A stretch of DNA of 45,936 nt from an uncultured bacterium (lineage in GTDB: Bacteria > Abyssobacteria > SURF-5), in the NCBI GenBank assembly GCA_964510165.1, contig CAZEBC010000011.1, forward strand, positions 1 through 45,936, given 5' to 3'. Of the stretch, positions 1,824 to 24,418 are shown in pieces. The position numbers were made by a program, and so were the translations under genes. Below the pieces are notes generated by a model. The model saw only the letters and a program-made list of their open reading frames with translations, did no database searches and was not told the DNA's origin. Positions within the stretch are counted from its first letter, which is position 1. Each line of letters begins with the position of its first letter.

Positions 1824-3005
1824 ATGACTCAACCGATAAGGGACAGAGTCGCAATAATCGGAATGGGCTGCTCAAAATTCGGCGAGCGGTGGGACTGCGA
1901 CGCGACCGATCTCATGGTCGAGGCGGCGTATGAGGCCTACGAAGACGCCGGCATCAGCCCCAAAGACATCGAGGCGGCATGGCTGGGAACGGTACAGTCC
2001 GGCATGACCGGCCAACCAGCCGCTGCCGCCCTGAAGCTTGATTATGTTCCGATAACTCGCGTCGAGAACGCGTGCTGTACCGCAACCGATGCGTTCCGAA
2101 ACGCGGTCTATGCGGTCGCGGCGGGCATCCATGACATCGTGCTCGCGATAGGCGTCGAAAAGCTGAAAGACACGGGCTGGACGGGCCTCGGCGGGTTCGG
2201 AATTCCCGGCAGCCCGATGGTGGACGCAAACACGCCGCCGCCCGTGCAGTTCGCGCTCGCGGCGACGCGCTACGCGCATCACTACGATATCCCGATGAAG
2301 GAACTCAAGAAGACCCTTGCGCGCATCGCCGTAAAGAATCACAAGAATGGCGCACTCAACCCGAAGGCGCATTTCCAGCGCGAAATCAAACTGGAGCAGG
2401 CCCTTAATGCGCCGATGGTCGCCTGGCCGCTCGGACTGTTCGACTGCTGCGGCGTGAGCGATGGTGCAGCCGCCGCCATCATCACCACTCGCGAATTGGC
2501 GAAAAAATTCAGGGACGACTACGTGCTCGTAAAGGGCATCGGCATGGCCGTCGGCGGCCAGCAGGGGATGCTGCAGGACGATTACGACTTCGTCCATTTC
2601 GAGGAAAACGTGCGCGCCTCGCAGATGGCGTATCGGGAAGCCGGCGTCAAAGACCCGCTTGAGGAGATCGACCACGCGATGGTGCATGACTGCTTTACCA
2701 TTACCGAGTTGATCATAACCGAAGACCTGGGGTTTGCGCCGAGGGGCAAAGGGCCGGAATATCACGAGGCGGGCACGTTCGACAGGGACGGCCAGCTTGC
2801 TATCAATATTGACGGCGGGTTGAAATGTTTTGGACATCCGATCGGCGCGAGCGGCATCCGCATGATTTACGAGGTGTACAAGCAACTCCAGGGCAAGGCT
2901 GGCCCGCGCCAGAGGAAAAATCCGCGCCTCGGCATGACGCATAATCTGGGTGGCCGTCCCGGCTCATTCACTTGTACGGTCGCGATTTTCGGCAAGGAGG
3001 ATTGA
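1824..3005 (+). CDS. Acetyl-CoA acetyltransferase, SCP2-type thiolase
   Basis: GGAGG SD; motifs VENACCTA, DGAAA, HDCF, GGLK-x-FGHPIGASG and HNLGG. Confidence 0.9.
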   Translation: MTQPIRDRVAIIGMGCSKFGERWDCDATDLMVEAAYEAYEDAGISPKDIEAAWLGTVQSGMTGQPAAAALKLDYVPITRVENACCTATDAFRNAVYAVAAGIHDIVLAIGVEKLKDTGWTGLGGFGIPGSPMVDANTPPPVQFALAATRYAHHYDIPMKELKKTLARIAVKNHKNGALNPKAHFQREIKLEQALNAPMVAWPLGLFDCCGVSDGAAAAIITTRELAKKFRDDYVLVKGIGMAVGGQQGMLQDDYDFVHFEENVRASQMAYREAGVKDPLEEIDHAMVHDCFTITELIITEDLGFAPRGKGPEYHEAGTFDRDGQLAINIDGGLKCFGHPIGASGIRMIYEVYKQLQGKAGPRQRKNPRLGMTHNLGGRPGSFTCTVAIFGKED

Positions 3006-3029
3006 TCCACGAACGCCGCGGATTATTGC

Positions 3030-3070
3030 GAAAAGCGGAAACACGATGTCTCACGTGTCCCCGCTTTTCT
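3030..3070 (+). terminator. Probable intrinsic terminator / palindromic repeat after the thiolase gene
   Basis: GAAAAGCGG-aa-ACACG...CGTGT-cc-CCGCTTTTC inverted repeat ending in a T-run. Confidence 0.55.
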
Positions 3071-3088
3071 CACATCTGAATCGCCCGA

Positions 3089-3117
3089 TTGACCATTCCT
3101 GCCGGTTATGTTAGAAT
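3089..3117 (+). promoter_or_regulatory. sigma70 promoter of tRNA-Thr
   Basis: TTGACC-N17-TAGAAT with extended -10 TG, ending 13 nt before the tRNA. Confidence 0.7.
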
Positions 3118-3130
3118 GAGTCCGTTAGAA

Positions 3131-3206
3131 GCTGGAGTAGCTCAGCCGGTAGAGCACCTCACTCGTAATGAGGGGGTCGTGGGTTCGAGTCCCATCTCCA
3201 GCTCCA
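3131..3206 (+). tRNA. tRNA-Thr (anticodon CGT)
   Basis: Cloverleaf: acceptor GCTGGAG/CTCCAGC, D-arm GCTC/GAGC, anticodon stem CCTCA/TGAGG with loop CT-CGT-AA, T-arm GTGGG-TTCGAGT-CCCAT, encoded CCA. Confidence 0.97.
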
Positions 3207-17653: not shown

Positions 17654-19799
17654 ATGAATCTCAGCCAGCTCATAGGGTTTATCGGTCATTTCATGGGGGC
17701 GGTCCTGCAACTGATCCTCATCATGATGATGGCCCGGCGCAAGGACAAGCGGCACAGCGAGACGCTGTTTTTCGTGCTGGTGGTTGTCGTCTTCATATGG
17801 CATTCCGGAAATTTCGTCATCACGTTTTCAAGATTGCTGACCGGTGAGCGGATCGTCATCGTCGGCCTGATATGGGATACGGCTGCGGCATTGAGCATCG
17901 GACTTGTGCCCGCATTGCTCATACATACGCTTCTCGCTTTCCTCGAGGAGGCGCCGCAGAACATCTATTCGAGGCGCAGGCATCTGGTGCTCTTGGCGGC
18001 ATACGCGCCTCTTCCGTTCTTCTGGCAGGCGCCGATCAGGCTCGTTCAGCATCCCGAACTCCCGCGCGCCGAGAACCTGCTGCTGGTCATTCAGATGTTT
18101 CAATACTGGACCATGGCGGCATTGGCCGTGGCGACGCACATGTGCCACACGCTTTCGAGTCTCTCACAAGACGACGTGCAGCGCCGGTTTTATATGTCGC
18201 TTGTGAGGATGTTTGCGGTCATCTTCGGGCTGATGGTGTTTACGCACCTGTTCTACGCCAAATATATTCCCGGCCTGGGGACCTACTTTCTCGCGGCCTG
18301 CTCGCTTGCGCCGATGTTTCCCACGATAGTGTTCTCATACTTCATTCTGCGTTATAACTACATGGAATACGTGCTCAAGAGGAGCATCTATTACGCGCTG
18401 CTTGCGACATTCGTGTTGACCGTTTACATTCTCGGCATTCGCCGCGTCGGTGATTTCCTGGAGCGCACACTCGATATTGACTTCAGGATAATCGAGGCGA
18501 TATTGGTCATAGGATTGTTTCTCCTTATTGATCCGTTGCGTGAGTGGTTCACGCGGGTGTTCAACGCCCTGTTCTTCCGGGAACAGTCATATTACCGACG
18601 CGTGTTCTCGGAACTCAGCCATCACATGAGTTCCATGCAGGGGATCGAGGTCGGCAGGATGCTGCGCTATGTCGCAGGAAGCGTTCAGGCTGCCATGCAA
18701 CTGAGCAACTGCAGGATCGTCCTTTTCCGGGAGGAAGACGGTCAGCGCACGATTGACGAGGCCTCAGCGGAGATTCCACTCGCAAACCTGGAGAATATCG
18801 CGCGGCACTTTCAGACGATACACGCTCACAGCATCTCGCTGTGGCAGGCGCCCGATCCGGCCATTGTTCGCGAGATGAAGGCGATCGACGCCACGCTGGT
18901 GCTTCCCATCTATCGGGATGGCGGCTTGACCGGCATCATGTCGCTCGGCGCGAGCACGCAGTATCGCGAGCTTTATGAGGACGAGATCGAGCTGCTCTCG
19001 ATATTGCTCAATCACCTCATAACCGCCATTGACAACACGCGTCTGTTGCAGGACAAAATCGAGATGGAGCGCCGCATGGCCGCCAATGAGAAATGGATGA
19101 CCATCGGGAGGCTGTCGGGCCAAATTGCGCACGAGGTGAAGAACCCGCTGAGTTCCATCAAGGCGATAACCCATGTCATGCGAGAGGAATTATCGCCTGA
19201 AACCCAGTTCTACAAGGACCTTTCCATCGTCGAGGACGAGATAGACAAGCTCTCCGGCGTGGTGAGCCAGTTGTTGCAGGTGTCGCGGCCGGCGTCGCGC
19301 GAAGAGCATTCCGCCAACCTTCGCGACATCATCGAGAACGTCGCCAGCGTGCTTCGCGCGAAAGCCTTGCAGGACGACATTTCGATCGAGTGTCAATATG
19401 AGCACGGCCTGCCGACAGTCAAGGCCGACCCTATCGCGCTGCGCGAGATTGTGTTCAACCTGATGCATAATGGCATGCAGTCGATGAGTTCGGGCGGGAG
19501 GCTCTCGGTTCAAGTGATGCGCTCAGCCGAAGACGACAGGCGCTCCGTGACCATCGTGGTGCACGACACCGGCCCGGGCATCTCGGAGGAAGACATGCCT
19601 AGGATTTTCGAGCCGTTCTACACCACAAAGGAAGGCGGCAGCGGGCTTGGACTCTGGATCGTCCGCGAAAAGCTGACGGACCTCGGCGGCACGATTTCCG
19701 TCGAAAGCAATCAAGGGACCACCGTGCGAGTGATGATCCCCCTTGAAGGCAAACCCGCCATGATGCGGCCAAATTCATCACAACCACAGGAGACAGGGA

Positions 19800-19807
<8 letters not shown>
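17654..19807 (+). CDS. Membrane-bound sensor histidine kinase (multi-TM N-terminus, GAF-like domain, HisKA, HATPase)
   Basis: AHEVKNPL H-box, N-box NLMHN, DTGPGI, FEPFYTTK and GSGLGL. Confidence 0.93.
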
Positions 19808-21200
<1,393 letters not shown>

Positions 21201-21228
21201 GACCTGAACCTGATGAGAGGGGAACCCT

Positions 21229-21666
21229 ATGGTTGAGAAGTCAGTGATCGGCAAGACTACCGCGGTTCACAAGATGGAGGTGGAGAAGGGGCATATACGC
21301 CGATTCGCCCAGGCAATCGGCGACGATAATCCACTCTATCATGACGAGGAATACGCGAGGAAGAGCCGATACGGCGGCATTGTTGCACCTCCCACTTTTC
21401 CGACAGTCTTCGGTTTCGAGGGCCAACGCGTGCTTGAAGGCCTCGAGATCAATCGCGCGCGCCTGCTGCACGGCGAGCAGGAGTACGAGTATTTCAGGCC
21501 GATTATGGCAGGTGACACGATCAGTTTCAGCACGAAGGTCATAGACGTGGATGTGAAGGAAGGCAAGAGCGGCGTCATGGATATCATCAGGACGGAGATG
21601 ACCGGCTACAACCAGCGAGCCGAAAAGGTGTTCGCCGCGCGCTCGACCGTTGTCATACGCAGATAG
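21229..21666 (+). CDS. MaoC-like dehydratase, N-terminal-type (FAS1-like hotdog) subunit
   Basis: IRRFA-x-AIGD-x-NP, APPTF and LLHGEQ motifs. Confidence 0.88.
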   Translation: MVEKSVIGKTTAVHKMEVEKGHIRRFAQAIGDDNPLYHDEEYARKSRYGGIVAPPTFPTVFGFEGQRVLEGLEINRARLLHGEQEYEYFRPIMAGDTISFSTKVIDVDVKEGKSGVMDIIRTEMTGYNQRAEKVFAARSTVVIRR

Positions 21667-21677
21667 GAGTGGATACC

Positions 21678-22118
21678 ATGTCCAAACAAACACTCTATTT
21701 CGATGACATCAACGTAGGCGACGAGATCCCAAGCCTGACGAAACCGCCAATCACCGAGGTGCAGCTCGTCAAGTATGCGGGCGCCTCGGGGGACTTCAAT
21801 CCCATCCACACGGTTCATCATTACGCCGAGAAAGCCGGCCTTGGCGGCGTTATCGCTCATGGGATGCTGAGCATGGGATTCGTGGGCGAGCACATCACCA
21901 AATGGATAGGGGAGACGGGCGACCTGAAGCGTCTTAAGGTTCGCTTTGCCGCCATCACGAGGCCGGGCGATGTGATCACTCTCAAGGGAAAGGTTATCCG
22001 AAAAGAGAAGTCCGACGGCGACAACCTGGTCTTCTGCGAGGTATGGGCCGAAAAGCAGGACGGCGTGAAGACCGTCACGGGCGAGGCGACTGTCAGGCTC
22101 TTGTCGCGCCAATCTTGA
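21678..22118 (+). CDS. MaoC-family (R)-specific enoyl-CoA hydratase/dehydratase, catalytic subunit
   Basis: YAGASGDFNPIH and IAHGM hydratase-2 motif; AGGAG SD. Confidence 0.9.
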   Translation: MSKQTLYFDDINVGDEIPSLTKPPITEVQLVKYAGASGDFNPIHTVHHYAEKAGLGGVIAHGMLSMGFVGEHITKWIGETGDLKRLKVRFAAITRPGDVITLKGKVIRKEKSDGDNLVFCEVWAEKQDGVKTVTGEATVRLLSRQS

Positions 22119-22152
22119 GAGAGATCCACACAAACAATCAGCGAGAAACCTC

Positions 22153-22530
22153 ATGAAAAGAACGAAAGGGCAAGTGGAAGAGGACATCTGCAAAGCGCTC
22201 ATCAAGTTTGAAAAAGACTACATGGGCCGGGGACCGCTCGAAGCAAAGGCCTATGTCATTGATGACATGATTCTTGTGCGTCTCAGAAAAGTACTTACCC
22301 AGGCTGAACTTAACCTTGCCCAGTCGGGCGAAAACTCTAAGGGTCGCGAACTCATAAAACAGATGCGGGTCGAGTTGCTGGAAAGGGGCCGCCCTCTCCT
22401 TGAGGCTGCCATCCAGGCCATCACCCGCAGAAACGTGGTCAGCCTCCATACGGATATAAGCACGGTCACGGGCGAAAGGATATTCATCTTCACCCTTGAC
22501 GGCGAACCCGAATTCACCGGTTCCGAATAG
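22153..22530 (+). CDS. DUF2294 / MpsC-family protein
   Basis: TKGQ-x-E, GRGP, LT-x-AE, GR-x-LIK-x-MR and HTDIS-x2-TGE-x4-FTL signature of DUF2294. Confidence 0.85.
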   Translation: MKRTKGQVEEDICKALIKFEKDYMGRGPLEAKAYVIDDMILVRLRKVLTQAELNLAQSGENSKGRELIKQMRVELLERGRPLLEAAIQAITRRNVVSLHTDISTVTGERIFIFTLDGEPEFTGSE

Positions 22531-22548
22531 GTTCTCAATCATACGGAC

Positions 22549-22577
22549 TTGACGACAGCGCCATAATATGTCATAGT
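22549..22577 (+). promoter_or_regulatory. sigma70 promoter driving the structured leader and the biotin carboxylase
   Basis: TTGACG-N17-CATAGT with extended -10 TG. Confidence 0.6.
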
Positions 22578-22592
22578 ACTTAAACTAATGAG

Positions 22593-22691
22593 TGCAGGCC
22601 CGGAGCTGAGGGCGAGGTCATTCGCCATCAGCCTGAGTCTGGAAGTGCGGATTCAAGTCTGGCCGGGCTCCCCGAAGGGGGTGCGGCTGCG
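22593..22691 (+). ncRNA. Candidate cis-regulatory structured RNA (riboswitch-like aptamer; no family I recognise)
   Basis: Five nested or adjacent stems folded by hand, immediately followed by a terminator that has an overlapping antiterminator. Confidence 0.6.
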
Positions 22692-22699
22692 GAAATGAA

Positions 22700-22740
22700 A
22701 GCCGAAGAGTCAATATGTGATTCTTCGGCTGTTTTCTTTA
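22700..22740 (+). terminator. Intrinsic terminator/attenuator in the biotin carboxylase leader
   Basis: 13-bp stem AGCCGAAGAGTCA/TGATTCTTCGGCT followed by GTTTTCTTT. Confidence 0.8.
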
Positions 22741-22777
22741 TGGCCATGTGGGGAACGACGGTTCCCGGAGGTCATTG

Positions 22778-24418
22778 ATGCATGGGACTTGCTTGAGCAA
22801 AGTGCTTGTCGCTAACAGGGGTGAGATAGCCATACGCATAATACGCGCCTGTCAGGAATTGGGAATAGAGACGGTGGCGATTTATTCAGACGACGACCGC
22901 AAATCGTTCTATTACCGGATCGCTGACGAAGCCATTCACATCGAGGGTTCCGGCGCTCGCGATACCTACCTGAATATTGACAAAGTAGTACATGTCGCGA
23001 AGAAGACCGGATGCGACGGGGTGCATCCAGGTTACGGTTTCCTGGCTGAAAACCCCGATTTCGTGAGTGCGTGCGAAGCGGCCGACCTCCATTTCATTGG
23101 ACCGTCCAGCGCCTGTATGAAGAAGGTGGGCGATAAGGCCGGGCTGAAACGGATAATGGAAGCCGGCGGCGTCCCGGTCCTGCCTTCGGTCGAAAACAGC
23201 GCTACTCCCGACGAAATGAAGACCCTGGTCAAGCGCATCGGATTCCCCGTGATCGTCAAGCCCTCCTTTGGCGGAGGCGGAAAGGGCATGAGAATAGCCC
23301 ACTCCGAGAACGAGCTTGAGGATGCCATTCGATACGCCAGAACAATTGGAATCTCGGCTTTCGGGAACGCGGCCTTCTATGTTGAGAAGTTGTTGGAACG
23401 GCCCCGGCACATCGAGGTGCAGATACTTGTGGACCGTAATGGGAGCATCGCCGCCTTCGGAGAGCGGGAATGTTCGATCCAGAGAAATCATCAGAAGCTG
23501 ATCGAGGAATCCCCCTCATCCGCAATTACTCAGGAATTGAGGGAAGAGGCCCAAGACCTTGCTCGAAAGGCCGCCGCCATTGTCGGCTATGAGAACGCGG
23601 GTACCATCGAGTTCCTGTATCAGGACGGACGCTTCTACTTCCTCGAAATCAACGCCCGAATCCAGGTCGAGCACTCCATCACGGAGCTTGTCACCGGAAT
23701 TGACCTCATCAAGGAGCAAATCAGCCTGATGTGCGGGAATCCGCTGCCCTTTGCCGGCAAGCAGCTATCTCCCCGGGGATGGGCGATCCAGTGCAGGGTC
23801 AACGCTGAGGACCCCTACAACAACTTCACCCCCTGCCCCGGCAAGATTATTGGCTATCGCTCTCCCGGCGGGCTGGGAGTCAGGGTGGACACCGGAGTAT
23901 TCATGGGTTACTCGATACCCGCGCAATACGACTCACTGGTGTCCAAATTGTCGGTCTGGGGCCGAGACCGACACGAAGCATTGTCCAGAATGAGGAGGGT
24001 CCTCAATGAATACGTCATCCTGGGCGTAAAGACCACTCTGCCCCTCTACAGGGCGATATTCAGGGAGAAGGACTTCGTCTCGGGAAACTATGACACCCGT
24101 TACATCGAAAAACATCTCGACGCGCTCCTCAAATCCATGGAGGAAATACAAAGGAGAGAGAAAACTCACGATGAAATGCTGGCGGCCGTCTTCAATGGGT
24201 TGACCCAGGAGCGCCGTCCTGGCAACCGCCACGCCGAGCCTTCAAGACCTTCTCGAGACCAGGAGTTGGCCGTCGTGATAGGCGCCGCCATCGCCCTGGC
24301 GACTGACTCCGTGGCAGCAACGCCCGAAAGCAACGGCCGCCCAAGTCAATGGCGTACGGCCGGGCGACTTGCCCAGATGACCAGTCGGCTCGGAAGCGGC
24401 CTGCGATACTTGACATGA
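22778..24418 (+). CDS. Biotin carboxylase subunit (AccC / two-subunit pyruvate carboxylase alpha-like) with C-terminal extension
   Basis: ANRGEIA, HPGYGFLAEN, GGGGKGM, ERECSIQR, RIQVEH, NAEDP and YDS motifs; GGAGG SD before ATG 22778; no biotinyl (AMKM) domain. Confidence 0.92.
   Translation: MHGTCLSKVLVANRGEIAIRIIRACQELGIETVAIYSDDDRKSFYYRIADEAIHIEGSGARDTYLNIDKVVHVAKKTGCDGVHPGYGFLAENPDFVSACEAADLHFIGPSSACMKKVGDKAGLKRIMEAGGVPVLPSVENSATPDEMKTLVKRIGFPVIVKPSFGGGGKGMRIAHSENELEDAIRYARTIGISAFGNAAFYVEKLLERPRHIEVQILVDRNGSIAAFGERECSIQRNHQKLIEESPSSAITQELREEAQDLARKAAAIVGYENAGTIEFLYQDGRFYFLEINARIQVEHSITELVTGIDLIKEQISLMCGNPLPFAGKQLSPRGWAIQCRVNAEDPYNNFTPCPGKIIGYRSPGGLGVRVDTGVFMGYSIPAQYDSLVSKLSVWGRDRHEALSRMRRVLNEYVILGVKTTLPLYRAIFREKDFVSGNYDTRYIEKHLDALLKSMEEIQRREKTHDEMLAAVFNGLTQERRPGNRHAEPSRPSRDQELAVVIGAAIALATDSVAATPESNGRPSQWRTAGRLAQMTSRLGSGLRYLT

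Follow-up and report, generated by a model that had tools for sequence, protein, structure and literature searches.

The mpsC-biotin carboxylase intergenic region

The window, by which we mean the whole 45,936-nt stretch of DNA that was analysed, comes from an uncultured bacterium of the SURF-5 lineage. It carries a set of MaoC-MaoC-mpsC genes upstream of an RNA element, and the element is followed by a gene for a biotin carboxylase subunit. The features of the locus are as follows.

22153-22530, + strand: mpsC (DUF2294) gene, 125 aa (Pfam PF10057, E 2.7e-35)
22549-22577, + strand: sigma-70 promoter of the leader RNA (consensus scan; TTGAC kept in homologous loci), with the -35 element TTGACG at 22549-54 and the TG-extended -10 element CATAGT at 22572-77
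22605-22632, + strand: domain-1 hairpin, present in the MFE fold and covarying in homologues, with outer helix CUGA/UCAG, a G/A internal loop and inner helix GGCGAG/UUCGCC
22634-22655, + strand: window-specific hairpin (full-length MFE fold)
22648-22655, + strand: 5' strand of P0, the antiterminator helix that closes domain 2 (nascent-transcript MFE)
22658-22693, + strand: domain 2, an irregular hairpin (model R1, 62 bits, E 6e-13) with helices P1a (22658-61 x 22690-93), P1b (22662-65 x 22684-87) and P2 (22667-72 x 22677-82) and with G22666 and G22683 unpaired
22696-22704, + strand: 3' strand of P0, which shares the first 5 nt of the terminator stem
22700-22740, + strand: intrinsic terminator, a 13-bp stem (22700-12 x 22718-30) and then a U tract
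22778-24418, + strand: biotin carboxylase subunit gene, 546 aa, starting at ATG 22778; the putative regulated gene

The mpsC product matched PF10057 with 121.2 bits (cut-off 23), or 120.7 bits in a whole-genome search, and a genome search showed the gene to be the sole copy in the window's genome. Pfam analysis of the flanking genes found no mpsAB. The biotin carboxylase product contains the Biotin_carb_N, CPSase_L_D2 and Biotin_carb_C domains (Pfam) and scored 669 bits against NCBIfam PRK08654, under the cut-off of 739. Its start codon is preceded at 6 nt by GGAGG, and the gap between the terminator U tract and the start codon is 38 nt.

Two covarying domains define an RNA family

The + strand from 22584 to 22745 folds at -77.7 kcal/mol (z -5.07), and none of 200 shuffled sequences was as good. 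Comparison with homologous loci revealed two conserved domains. In the domain-1 hairpin, 88.1% of alignment cells were paired compared with 69.0% after shuffling (20 sequences; 0 of 500 shuffles as good); the window's row was out of register in this MAFFT alignment, and its hairpin was matched by eye. For domain 2, the corresponding values were 86.3% and 69.2% (0 of 500), and slid controls reached at most 51%. Double changes were found at all 28 pairs of domain 2 and the terminator. The conserved core of domain 2 reads CGGGCYC...GRGYGCG, and in one homologue (G005) the GGGC/GUGC core has been swapped out through compensatory changes. An analysis of 54 sequences with MAFFT and RNAalifold recovered the terminator alone, because the variable P2 was misaligned; the structure of model R1 was written by hand on a 25-sequence subset, and the sequences were then realigned to the model. 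Like riboswitches in general, the element is a conserved structured domain with covarying helices that lies ahead of genes.

The initial annotation had described a multistem aptamer closed by two long-range helices, GCAG 22594-97/CTGC 22687-90 (its P1) and GCCCGG 22598-603/CCGGGC 22663-68 (its P2). This closure is not conserved: both helices are missing from the MFE fold, and the 3' strand of each is used by a domain-2 helix. Two of the inner stems fared better, as the proposed P3 (22605-32) is the conserved domain-1 hairpin and the proposed P5 (22670-81) lies inside P2 of domain 2, and the expectation that covarying homologues exist held for both domains. The remaining stem, P4 (22634-55), forms in the full-length MFE fold, as had been proposed, but has no counterpart in the other loci compared. 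It is also missing from the nascent-transcript MFE fold, and it cannot form together with P0, because the 3' strand of the one overlaps with the 5' strand of the other.

The window contains a single Rfam match, a tRNA at 3131-3203. No Rfam family matched the region 22400-22900 at E <= 10, none overlapped the element in 15 homologous loci at E <= 1, and the window element did not reach the gathering score of an Rfam 15 family. This search had been recommended in the initial annotation, and its outcome agrees with the view taken there that the element may be new, its aptamer not having been recognised as any of eight named classes. The window element belongs to a previously undescribed RNA family with two covarying domains. 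Literature searches found no inorganic-carbon RNA, although supplementary tables of riboswitch-discovery papers may list the motif under another name; those for DUF2294 returned unrelated work only. In excerpts of the Pelobacter genome paper, the only riboswitches mentioned are those for Moco and cobalamin (PMC3543383).

Model R1 matched on the + strand at 64 of 83 mpsC loci (E <= 0.01). These loci come from five named phyla in addition to the window's own, and R1 gave no match in 141 genomes outside the window's family. About a fifth of the mpsC loci lack the RNA; at one of them (L116) the promoter is kept and no structured leader is present. Within the window's family, mpsC occurs in 2 of 10 genomes, and the RNA was found in both of these, together with one copy cut by a contig edge. 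Carriers include the cultivated Desulforapulum autotrophicum and Desulfosudis oleivorans, and also Candidatus Kuenenia. When the element was compared by BLAST with its own genome and 40 relatives, chance matches alone were obtained; an exact-pattern metagenome scan for the terminator returned one unrelated terminator (L115), and the biotin carboxylase was uninformative as a query, retrieving only generic AccC loci. At three Geobacteraceae-type loci (L111-L113), a promoter, a structured RNA and a terminator are followed by purE; these gave no R1 match, and their RNAs were compared with the family by eye.

Some loci carry two successive domain-plus-terminator units. In one genome (G043), R1 gave four weak extra matches.

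A conserved promoter, a terminator and a predicted competing antiterminator

The promoter found by consensus scan consists of TTGACG, a 17-nt spacer and CATAGT with an upstream TG. Taken alone, the site is within chance, with four promoter-type matches found versus 2.1 expected. Among 56 homologous loci, however, 47 have a TTGAC at a distance of 60 to 220 nt on the 5' side of domain 2, compared with 8 in a control region placed another 200 nt upstream, and this conservation bears out the earlier placement of a promoter at 22549-22577. Transcription of the leader is predicted to start near 22585. The 13-bp terminator that had been assigned to 22700-22740 was likewise confirmed: it combines a GC-rich stem (22700-22730) with GTTTTCTTT, as is typical of Rho-independent terminators, folds alone at -20.7 kcal/mol, and has a helix that covaries (91.5% paired in 56 sequences).

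The antiterminator initially proposed, CGGCU/AGCCG, can form only the first two of its five pairs in most of the 56 sequences and shows no covariation beyond that of shuffles. When transcripts were cut ahead of the 3' strand of the terminator, its 5' strand was instead predicted, for 34 of the 56 homologues, to pair with the segment immediately ahead of domain 2 (nucleotides -1 to -10). In the window, this helix, P0, joins 22648-50 to 22702-04 and 22652-55 to 22696-99 in the nascent-transcript MFE fold. Among 19 type-A sequences P0 was 82% paired, with compensatory changes, and in a covariation test on related sequences, uncorrected for kinship, matched duplexes were more stable than mismatched ones (-5.83 versus -5.23 kcal/mol), with 13 of 5000 permutations as good. 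Outside type A, P0 comprises only 3-5 bp, and a model that includes it (R2) recovered 29 of 70 sources, being too specific to type A. A pairing of GGCY in the 5' strand of P2 with the terminator was weighed by eye and dropped.

Because P0 pairs with the 5' strand of the terminator, the RNA has two mutually exclusive predicted states, the in silico hallmark of an expression platform, with the proviso that P0 is short outside type A. For the full-length window RNA, folding favours the terminator state over the P0 state by about 10 kcal/mol. The OFF-switch logic that had been proposed is not supported: the conserved alternative sets closure of domain 2 against the 5' strand of the terminator, which fits an ON switch, with read-through presumably occurring when the element is bound. 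We consider it very probable that the RNA is a cis-acting conditional terminator.

The RNA is linked to mpsC and precedes genes of CO2 and bicarbonate metabolism

The RNA is single-copy in the window's genome, and five other genomes have one strong copy each, all at mpsC. In a search of 121 genomes that was blind to mpsC, six of the eight matches were true and all six lay directly after mpsC; the other two were plain terminators. Six of 121 genomes is a floor, since the stricter filters of this search lost even the known match in G044. The layout is not uniform, as some Planctomycetota have a related RNA that is divergent from one mpsC and upstream of an mpsC paralogue.

At the 64 loci, the genes after the RNA encode PEPCK-like proteins (17 loci), gamma-CA-like proteins (9), PurC (8), HMGL-like proteins (5), PEPCK_GTP (4), PurE, DUF4914 and biotin carboxylase (3 each), GT4 (2), and CarB, SbtA, IOR/POR and an MpsC paralogue (1 each); no same-strand gene follows soon after the RNA at 6 of the 64. 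This tally is not unbiased, because most loci were gathered through MpsC similarity, and the genomes are related and not independent. A 590-aa downstream family had no Pfam match; its members and the DUF4914 proteins are probable CO2-linked enzymes. The RNA family precedes genes for users or suppliers of CO2 and HCO3-, and at two loci (L153 and L175) domain 1 and the terminator alone stand ahead of sbtA or a PEPCK-like gene.

Of the 58 loci whose downstream gene could be classified, 30 have a coding match that begins <= 60 nt past the RNA match, which leaves no room for a separate promoter. The downstream genes often begin 20-60 nt past the terminator, indicating that the RNA acts in cis. Given the position of the RNA beside mpsC and ahead of CO2 and bicarbonate genes, control of those genes through the terminator is probable; that is, the RNA probably turns genes for downstream CO2/bicarbonate enzymes on or off via transcription termination. 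The suggestion made at the outset, that the element may respond to CO2/HCO3- itself or via the DUF2294 protein, is strongly backed by the downstream genes at the 64 loci and by the linkage to mpsC, from which we infer inorganic carbon as the signal.

MpsC is a candidate partner of the RNA

The AlphaFold model of MpsC has a pLDDT of 92.6, and eight Arg/Lys positions are invariant or nearly so among 45 sequences. Pfam shows only PF10057 in the 125-aa protein, and no ANTAR domain. We found no recognisable nucleic-acid-binding fold: the best Foldseek match was YslB/Bet3 (E 9e-3, TM 0.44), a PDB profile search with the MpsC sequence gave no match, and the best VIA Z of 7.1 is within the stated noise of that tool, which does not make the fold new. 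MpsC is also found fused to a receiver domain, of which it forms the C-terminal partner (REC-MpsC), and the Atlas has a cluster of 69 such proteins. The one REC-MpsC gene that was examined had no adjoining R1 match, and a word-based search for longer fused forms of MpsC found none. MpsC looks like a regulator; with its strict linkage to the RNA and its fusion to a receiver domain, it is a candidate for the cognate RNA-binding protein encoded nearby, the fold itself not being diagnostic.

The gene is named after the mpsABC locus of Staphylococcus aureus (PMC6689103). In the passages of Fan et al. 2019 considered here, deletion of S. aureus mpsC had no transport or growth phenotype, and mpsC is described as collocated with mpsAB only in staphylococci and as dispensable for transport; these passages mention no RNA element and no role for MpsC (PMC6689103). 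Measured against the same passages (PMC6689103), the earlier description of DUF2294 genes as companions of MpsAB/DAB operons goes too far.

A model for control by MpsC, and its alternatives

The interval is best explained as the 5' leader of the biotin carboxylase gene, a structured RNA of about 150 nt with its own sigma-70 promoter. From the sequence comparisons, our best reading is that this leader would be an inorganic-carbon attenuator with the adjacent MpsC as its trans factor, and we attach roughly even confidence to this explanation as a whole; for MpsC as the effector, taken by itself, the chances also seem about equal. The leader would be transcribed from its own promoter directly after mpsC and would end at the intrinsic terminator. 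Formation of the terminator, the thermodynamic default, would be the OFF state, and closure of domain 2 by P0 would allow read-through and turn the downstream gene ON. MpsC may bind both domains at their G-rich internal loops and stabilise the antiterminator when inorganic carbon is limiting, and would then work on the leader RNA as a NasR or ANTAR regulator does.

The main rival is a true riboswitch, in which the RNA itself would bind bicarbonate or CO2, perhaps via a metal, or a carbon-status metabolite, shifting the balance between P0 and the terminator, while MpsC is merely co-located. This is possible, and we regard it as rather doubtful. The two covarying domains have invariant purine-rich internal loops, and together with the terminator they form a typical riboswitch layout directly ahead of functionally coherent genes, in which the closing helix and the terminator exclude each other; the occurrence of domain 1 and the terminator alone at L153 and L175 and the lack of a known RNA-binding fold in MpsC also suit an RNA sensor. 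Riboswitch classes are, however, normally scattered across several unlinked operons per genome, free of any one protein partner, whereas this RNA is found as one copy per genome, at mpsC. Moreover, mpsC is not simply regulated cargo, because the promoter lies between it and the RNA, and the compensatory replacement of the conserved core in G005 would be awkward if recognition needs that exact sequence. Phrase searches of the literature found no bicarbonate or CO2 riboswitch, and we know of no RNA that binds bicarbonate. We think it unlikely that the family is the first natural inorganic-carbon-sensing RNA, with domains 1 and 2 binding bicarbonate, CO2 or a dedicated carbon-status messenger and MpsC as an accessory.

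Another alternative is an independent trans-acting sRNA gene that lies by chance between mpsC and varying neighbours and acts by base pairing or by titration of a protein such as MpsC; in its favour, an RNA of about 150 nt is bracketed by a conserved promoter and a terminator, both of them strong. The variation of the downstream gene between genomes and the 6 of 64 loci without a same-strand gene soon after the RNA would agree with this. Such an autonomous unit would leave the neighbour with its own promoter, but at 30 of 58 loci the next gene starts so close (<= 60 nt), separated from the RNA by no more than a ribosome-binding site, that it must be transcribed through the terminator. The functional coherence of the downstream genes and the conserved pairing that competes with the terminator also speak against an sRNA gene, which we consider improbable.

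It is very improbable that the hairpin is a constitutive terminator of the MaoC-MaoC-mpsC unit with upstream stems that arose by chance in GC-rich sequence: although the promoter-like match alone is within chance and the - strand of the folded region also beats shuffles (z -3.15), both domains are conserved and covary across five named phyla, the position of the promoter is conserved, and R1 has no match in the 141 unrelated genomes. Leader-peptide (ribosome-mediated) attenuation via a 36-codon ORF that runs from ATG 22588 to TGA 22696-98 and covers the whole structured region was rejected, as the longest ORFs of the 56 homologous RNAs vary in length between 0 and 47 codons, have unrelated sequences and encode no conserved peptide, a Shine-Dalgarno-like motif is present in only 7 of 56 and not in the window, and the substitutions are compensatory in RNA helices and not synonymous.

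Implications for the sensing of inorganic carbon

To our knowledge, how non-photosynthetic bacteria sense CO2 or bicarbonate and adjust their carboxylases is largely unknown. Control of the leader RNA by MpsC would give MpsC/DUF2294 a candidate function, as the regulator of a leader RNA, that can be tested. A compact cassette of mpsC, promoter and leader RNA precedes almost every classic bicarbonate-dependent step, namely anaplerotic PEPCK or pyruvate carboxylase, PurE/PurC, CarB, carbonic anhydrase and the SbtA transporter. The element is also a candidate CO2-responsive genetic switch for anaerobes. If direct sensing by the RNA were true, a widespread CO2-responsive regulon would exist in anaerobic Thermodesulfobacteriota, Planctomycetota (including anammox bacteria), Nitrospirota and candidate phyla. 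Since cultivated carriers exist, direct tests are feasible.

Comparison with known systems

The supply of CO2 and HCO3- for carboxylations is the theme that the system shares with MpsAB/DAB, SbtA/SbtB and carbonic anhydrase, and sbtA and gamma-CA-like genes are themselves among the genes found after the RNA. Those systems consist of transporters, enzymes and protein sensors, whereas an RNA element is involved here. Terminator-controlled riboswitches, including tandem ones and the anion-sensing fluoride class, resemble the family in three respects: the helix that closes a covarying, aptamer-like domain competes with a terminator, the RNA forms part of the 5' UTR of genes that are functionally coherent, and some loci have two domain-plus-terminator units. 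The present family differs from them in having no Rfam match, in being single-copy and in being tied to one protein gene.

HutP/hut and PyrR/pyr are attenuation systems of Bacillus in which, as proposed here for mpsC, a small regulator gene lies directly upstream of a terminator-containing target RNA in the same orientation. HutP and PyrR share a promoter with their targets, whereas a conserved promoter separates mpsC from the RNA, and neither the proteins nor the RNA motifs resemble the MpsC system in sequence or fold.

In NasR/nasF, a regulator gene adjoins a leader RNA that has a promoter of its own and an intrinsic terminator at its end. ANTAR-type systems recognise a pair of short hairpins that carry hexanucleotide loops, and the second hairpin overlaps the terminator. 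Here, in contrast to these paired hexaloop hairpins, there are two larger hairpins with G-rich internal loops, and the window's domain hairpins have 4-nt loops; nor does MpsC have an ANTAR domain (PF10057 is its only Pfam match). The gene arrangement is the same as in NasR/nasF and the ANTAR systems (EutV, AmiR, NasT), with a regulator gene, here putatively mpsC, beside a separately promoted, terminator-ended leader. The output domain is fused to a receiver domain in both cases, as REC-ANTAR and as REC-MpsC, and the signal is a small inorganic anion, nitrate or nitrite for the NasR/ANTAR systems and, by inference, inorganic carbon here. By analogy, the proposed mechanism would be shared as well: the protein would stabilise an antiterminator, and this antiterminator overlaps the terminator in the 5' strand of its stem.

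Organization of the mpsC-biotin carboxylase spacer

The element lies in the 247-nt spacer between an mpsC (DUF2294) gene and a biotin carboxylase gene, where the + strand of the window carries the following features.

22153-22530, +: DUF2294/MpsC gene, 125 aa, upstream of the element (Pfam PF10057, E 2.7e-35)
22549-77, +: promoter TTGACG-17-CATAGT, from a consensus scan
22700-30, +: terminator, 13-bp stem followed by a T tract, from a consensus scan
22778, +: ATG of the biotin carboxylase gene, downstream of the element (Biotin_carb_N, CPSase_L_D2, Biotin_carb_C)

For 22584-22745, the predicted folding energy of the + strand is -77.7 kcal/mol (z -5.07), a value that none of 200 shuffles reached; the - strand of the same segment folds less well (z -3.15). 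The biotin carboxylase ATG is preceded by GGAGG and lies 38 nt 3' of the U tract. The approximately 90 C-terminal residues of this protein past Biotin_carb_C (24130-24418) have no Pfam match, and no carrier or carboxyltransferase gene lies 3' of it, where the next gene encodes an MFS transporter and has the opposite orientation. Upstream, mpsC closes a tight same-strand array of five genes (17654-22530), in which it is preceded by genes for a GAF histidine kinase, a sigma-54 response regulator and two MaoC-like dehydratases.

The initial annotation had proposed a new element, and Rfam 15 contained no family that matched it, either at gathering thresholds across the whole window, at E<=10 over 22400-22900, or when homologous loci were searched. 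The sole ARAGORN prediction in the window was a tRNA-Thr away from the element. Full-text literature searches on 'DUF2294', on a bicarbonate/CO2 riboswitch and on broader terms returned nothing relevant, with supplementary motif tables outside their scope.

Homologous RNAs are linked to mpsC

DNA similarity searches of the window's own genome and 40 relatives found no homologues of the element; synteny, unlike DNA similarity, led to them. The mpsC gene is present in 2 of 10 genomes of the window's family, and the only other carrier (G005; MpsC 70% identical at the amino acid level) shares the window's layout of mpsC, near-consensus promoter, approximately 190 nt of structured RNA, recognizably homologous terminator and biotin carboxylase. 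MpsC-based locus searches added 4 and then 80 loci, from MAGs whose record titles name 'Deltaproteobacteria'/Thermodesulfobacteriota, Planctomycetota, Hydrogenedentota, Nitrospirota and Goldiibacteriota. An obvious conserved element was present in the 450 nt 3' of the mpsC stop codon, and an iterated nhmmer profile seeded with the window matched 63 of 80 distinct downstream sequences. Using a structure hand-written on a 25-sequence alignment, which already showed covariation, we built R1, a covariance model of domain 2 (the conserved hairpin next to the terminator) and the terminator. Of 83 mpsC loci, 64 gave a + strand match to R1 (E<=0.01), and in a chosen set 56 of 57 matched at E<=4e-6. 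Roughly one mpsC locus in five is without the RNA; L116 (1863-2050), for example, keeps a near-consensus promoter after mpsC with no structured leader or terminator, and a GAPDH gene comes next.

The window's genome contains exactly one R1 copy, and five other genomes contain one strong copy each, all beside mpsC; a scan of 141 genomes from beyond the window's family gave no match. Among 11 genomes searched from the window's small phylum, R1 was restricted to the two mpsC-bearing genomes and one contig-edge copy, which precedes a biotin carboxylase. When 121 genomes of another order were searched blind to mpsC, each of the six matches containing domain 2 lay immediately 3' of a co-oriented mpsC, and the other two were plain terminators. 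The predicted promoter was borne out: 47 of 56 loci have a TTGAC at the expected spacing, whereas a control region has one in 8 of 56, and this conservation indicates a dedicated promoter for the RNA, situated between the RNA and mpsC.

Some Planctomycetota carry a pair of divergent mpsC paralogues with a related RNA in the interval, placed upstream of one member of the pair. These domain-1-like RNAs with a terminator (L232 2064-2159; L222 2098-2176; L225 2211-2306; L233 1195-1288) precede the second paralogue and use the same parts in another layout, which hints at autoregulation.

Covariation defines two hairpin domains

In the 56-sequence R1 alignment, 86.3% of cells pair, compared with 69.2% after shuffling (0 of 500 as good) and at most 51% with slid partners, and double changes occur in all 28 pairs; being fitted to R1, this alignment favours the structure, and MAFFT-based pairing counts agree. 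The domain 2 consensus is GUY-N-GR-N-CGGGCYC-[hairpin]-GRGYGCG-N-(3' strand of P1)-A-N-RAAGGCCG-terminator. The conserved helices lie in the window as follows.

22605-32, +: domain 1, a second conserved hairpin upstream of domain 2
22658-61 x 22690-93, +: P1a of domain 2
22662-65 x 22684-87, +: P1b of domain 2
22667-72 x 22677-82, +: P2 of domain 2, with unpaired G22666 opposite G22683

Domain 1 also covaries (20 sequences; 88.1% paired versus 69.0% shuffled, 0 of 500), with one pair alternating between 12 GC and 8 AU. Several stems of the initial annotation were recovered: its P3 is the domain 1 hairpin, its P5 forms part of domain 2 in the window, and its terminator is real. Its long-range P1 and P2 did not survive, their nucleotides belonging to the conserved domain 2 helix, and its P4 seems specific to the window.

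By eye, the loci sort into at least three groups: type A (Desulfobacterales-like), with a differently built domain 1; type B (Planctomycetota, Nitrospirota, Hydrogenedentota), with an additional terminator after domain 1; and a Geobacteraceae type, with a divergent RNA in an unchanged layout. In Geobacteraceae/Desulfuromonadaceae MAGs (L111, L112, L113, approximately 2900-3100), mpsC and a promoter are followed by a different structured RNA (GGCAGAGAGCCCGGAG...), which R1 does not match, a terminator and a PurE-like gene. In G005, the nearest relative (L030 2130-2214), all domain 2 helices are kept, and the near-invariant CGGGC/GUGCG core is replaced by UGUAU/AAUGCA through compensatory changes.

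The RNA is very probably a cis-acting terminator/antiterminator leader

Of 58 loci whose downstream gene could be classified, 30 have a coding match that starts no more than 60 nt after the RNA match, often with nothing but a Shine-Dalgarno sequence between them; so near the terminator, the gene must be transcribed through it, as expected of an RNA that acts in cis. A leader-peptide mechanism was excluded, as there is no conserved ORF. We then folded transcripts cut before the 3' strand of the terminator. The terminator 5' strand (consensus AAGGCCG) paired mainly upstream of domain 2 (mean probability 0.55 to 0.77 per position); in 34 of 56 sequences its partner was specifically the 10-nt stretch that immediately precedes domain 2. 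In these models, the resulting antiterminator helix, P0, is predicted to close domain 2 and exclude the terminator. P0 is 82% paired in 19 type A sequences, some changes being compensatory, and cognate duplexes, at -5.83 kcal/mol, are more stable than non-cognate ones, at -5.23 (13 of 5000 permutations as good, in a test that makes no correction for relatedness). The minimum free energy fold of the window's nascent transcript includes P0 (22648-50 x 22702-04 and 22652-55 x 22696-99). The CGGCU/AGCCG antiterminator proposed initially is not conserved.

For the full-length window RNA, the terminator state is ahead by approximately 10 kcal/mol (-77.7 versus -67.6), and termination is thus the default. 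Whatever stabilizes closed domain 2 would promote read-through, a direction that we infer.

Genes downstream of the RNA

The next same-strand gene was tallied across 64 loci; these were gathered by MpsC similarity and include related genomes, so the counts are descriptive.

Table. Next same-strand gene after the RNA (number of loci)
~590-aa family without Pfam/NCBIfam match (NCBI name PEP carboxykinase in several records): 17
Gamma-carbonic-anhydrase-like: 9
PurC: 8
HMGL-like: 5
GTP-PEPCK: 4
DUF4914: 3
PurE: 3
Biotin carboxylase: 3
Glycosyltransferase (GT4): 2
CarB: 1
SbtA bicarbonate transporter: 1
2-Oxoacid:ferredoxin oxidoreductase-type subunit: 1
MpsC paralogue: 1
Nothing classified: 6

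We take these genes to represent classic CO2/HCO3--dependent steps in anaplerosis and in purine and arginine/pyrimidine synthesis, plus inorganic-carbon supply; the leader would then report inorganic-carbon status. The commonest, the ~590-aa family (L162 2136-3362 and 16 other loci, e.g., L146, L121, L127), is replaced in position by DUF4914 or GTP-PEPCK in other genomes, and this common position after the RNA suggests a related CO2-linked job for all three. In L118, the MpsC match (1501-1875) is interrupted by one in-frame stop codon, which might reflect recoding, a pseudogene or an error in sequencing; the region downstream retains both the RNA and a PEPCK-like gene. In L130 (2184-2486) and L132 (1174-1617), the ORF immediately after the RNA is PurC-like but short (101 to 148 aa, when PurC is approximately 295 aa elsewhere), perhaps what is left of a truncated purC; a gamma-CA-like gene comes after it.

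MpsC as a candidate factor and comparison with known systems

The leading candidate for a factor that acts on the leader is the adjacent MpsC, which would bind both G-rich hairpin domains and favour P0; we give this roughly even odds. The main rival, a riboswitch working independently of protein, appears distinctly less probable. By sequence, MpsC has no solved relative. Its AlphaFold model is confident (pLDDT 92.6; alpha-beta-beta-alpha-alpha-beta-beta), and structure searches gave no match above noise (best Foldseek, YslB/Bet3, E 9e-3; best VIA Z, 7.1). Across 45 MpsC sequences, eight Arg/Lys positions vary little or not at all. MpsC also occurs in a 312-aa receiver fusion (L242 1468-2403, - strand; Response_reg 48-136, C-terminal MpsC 189-301), and such proteins form a cluster of 69 in the ESM Atlas; in response regulators, the output domain occupies this C-terminal position. 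No R1 match lies beside the L242 gene. In Staphylococcus aureus, deletion of mpsC is reported to cause no growth phenotype, and MpsAB activity does not require mpsC (PMC6689103).

In mode of working, the closest analogues of the mpsC-linked RNA are NasR acting on the nasF leader and the ANTAR regulators. The latter carry an ANTAR domain and target a pair of hexaloop hairpins, whereas MpsC has no ANTAR domain and its linked RNA no such pair; the mpsC-linked element therefore stands outside the NasR/ANTAR families.
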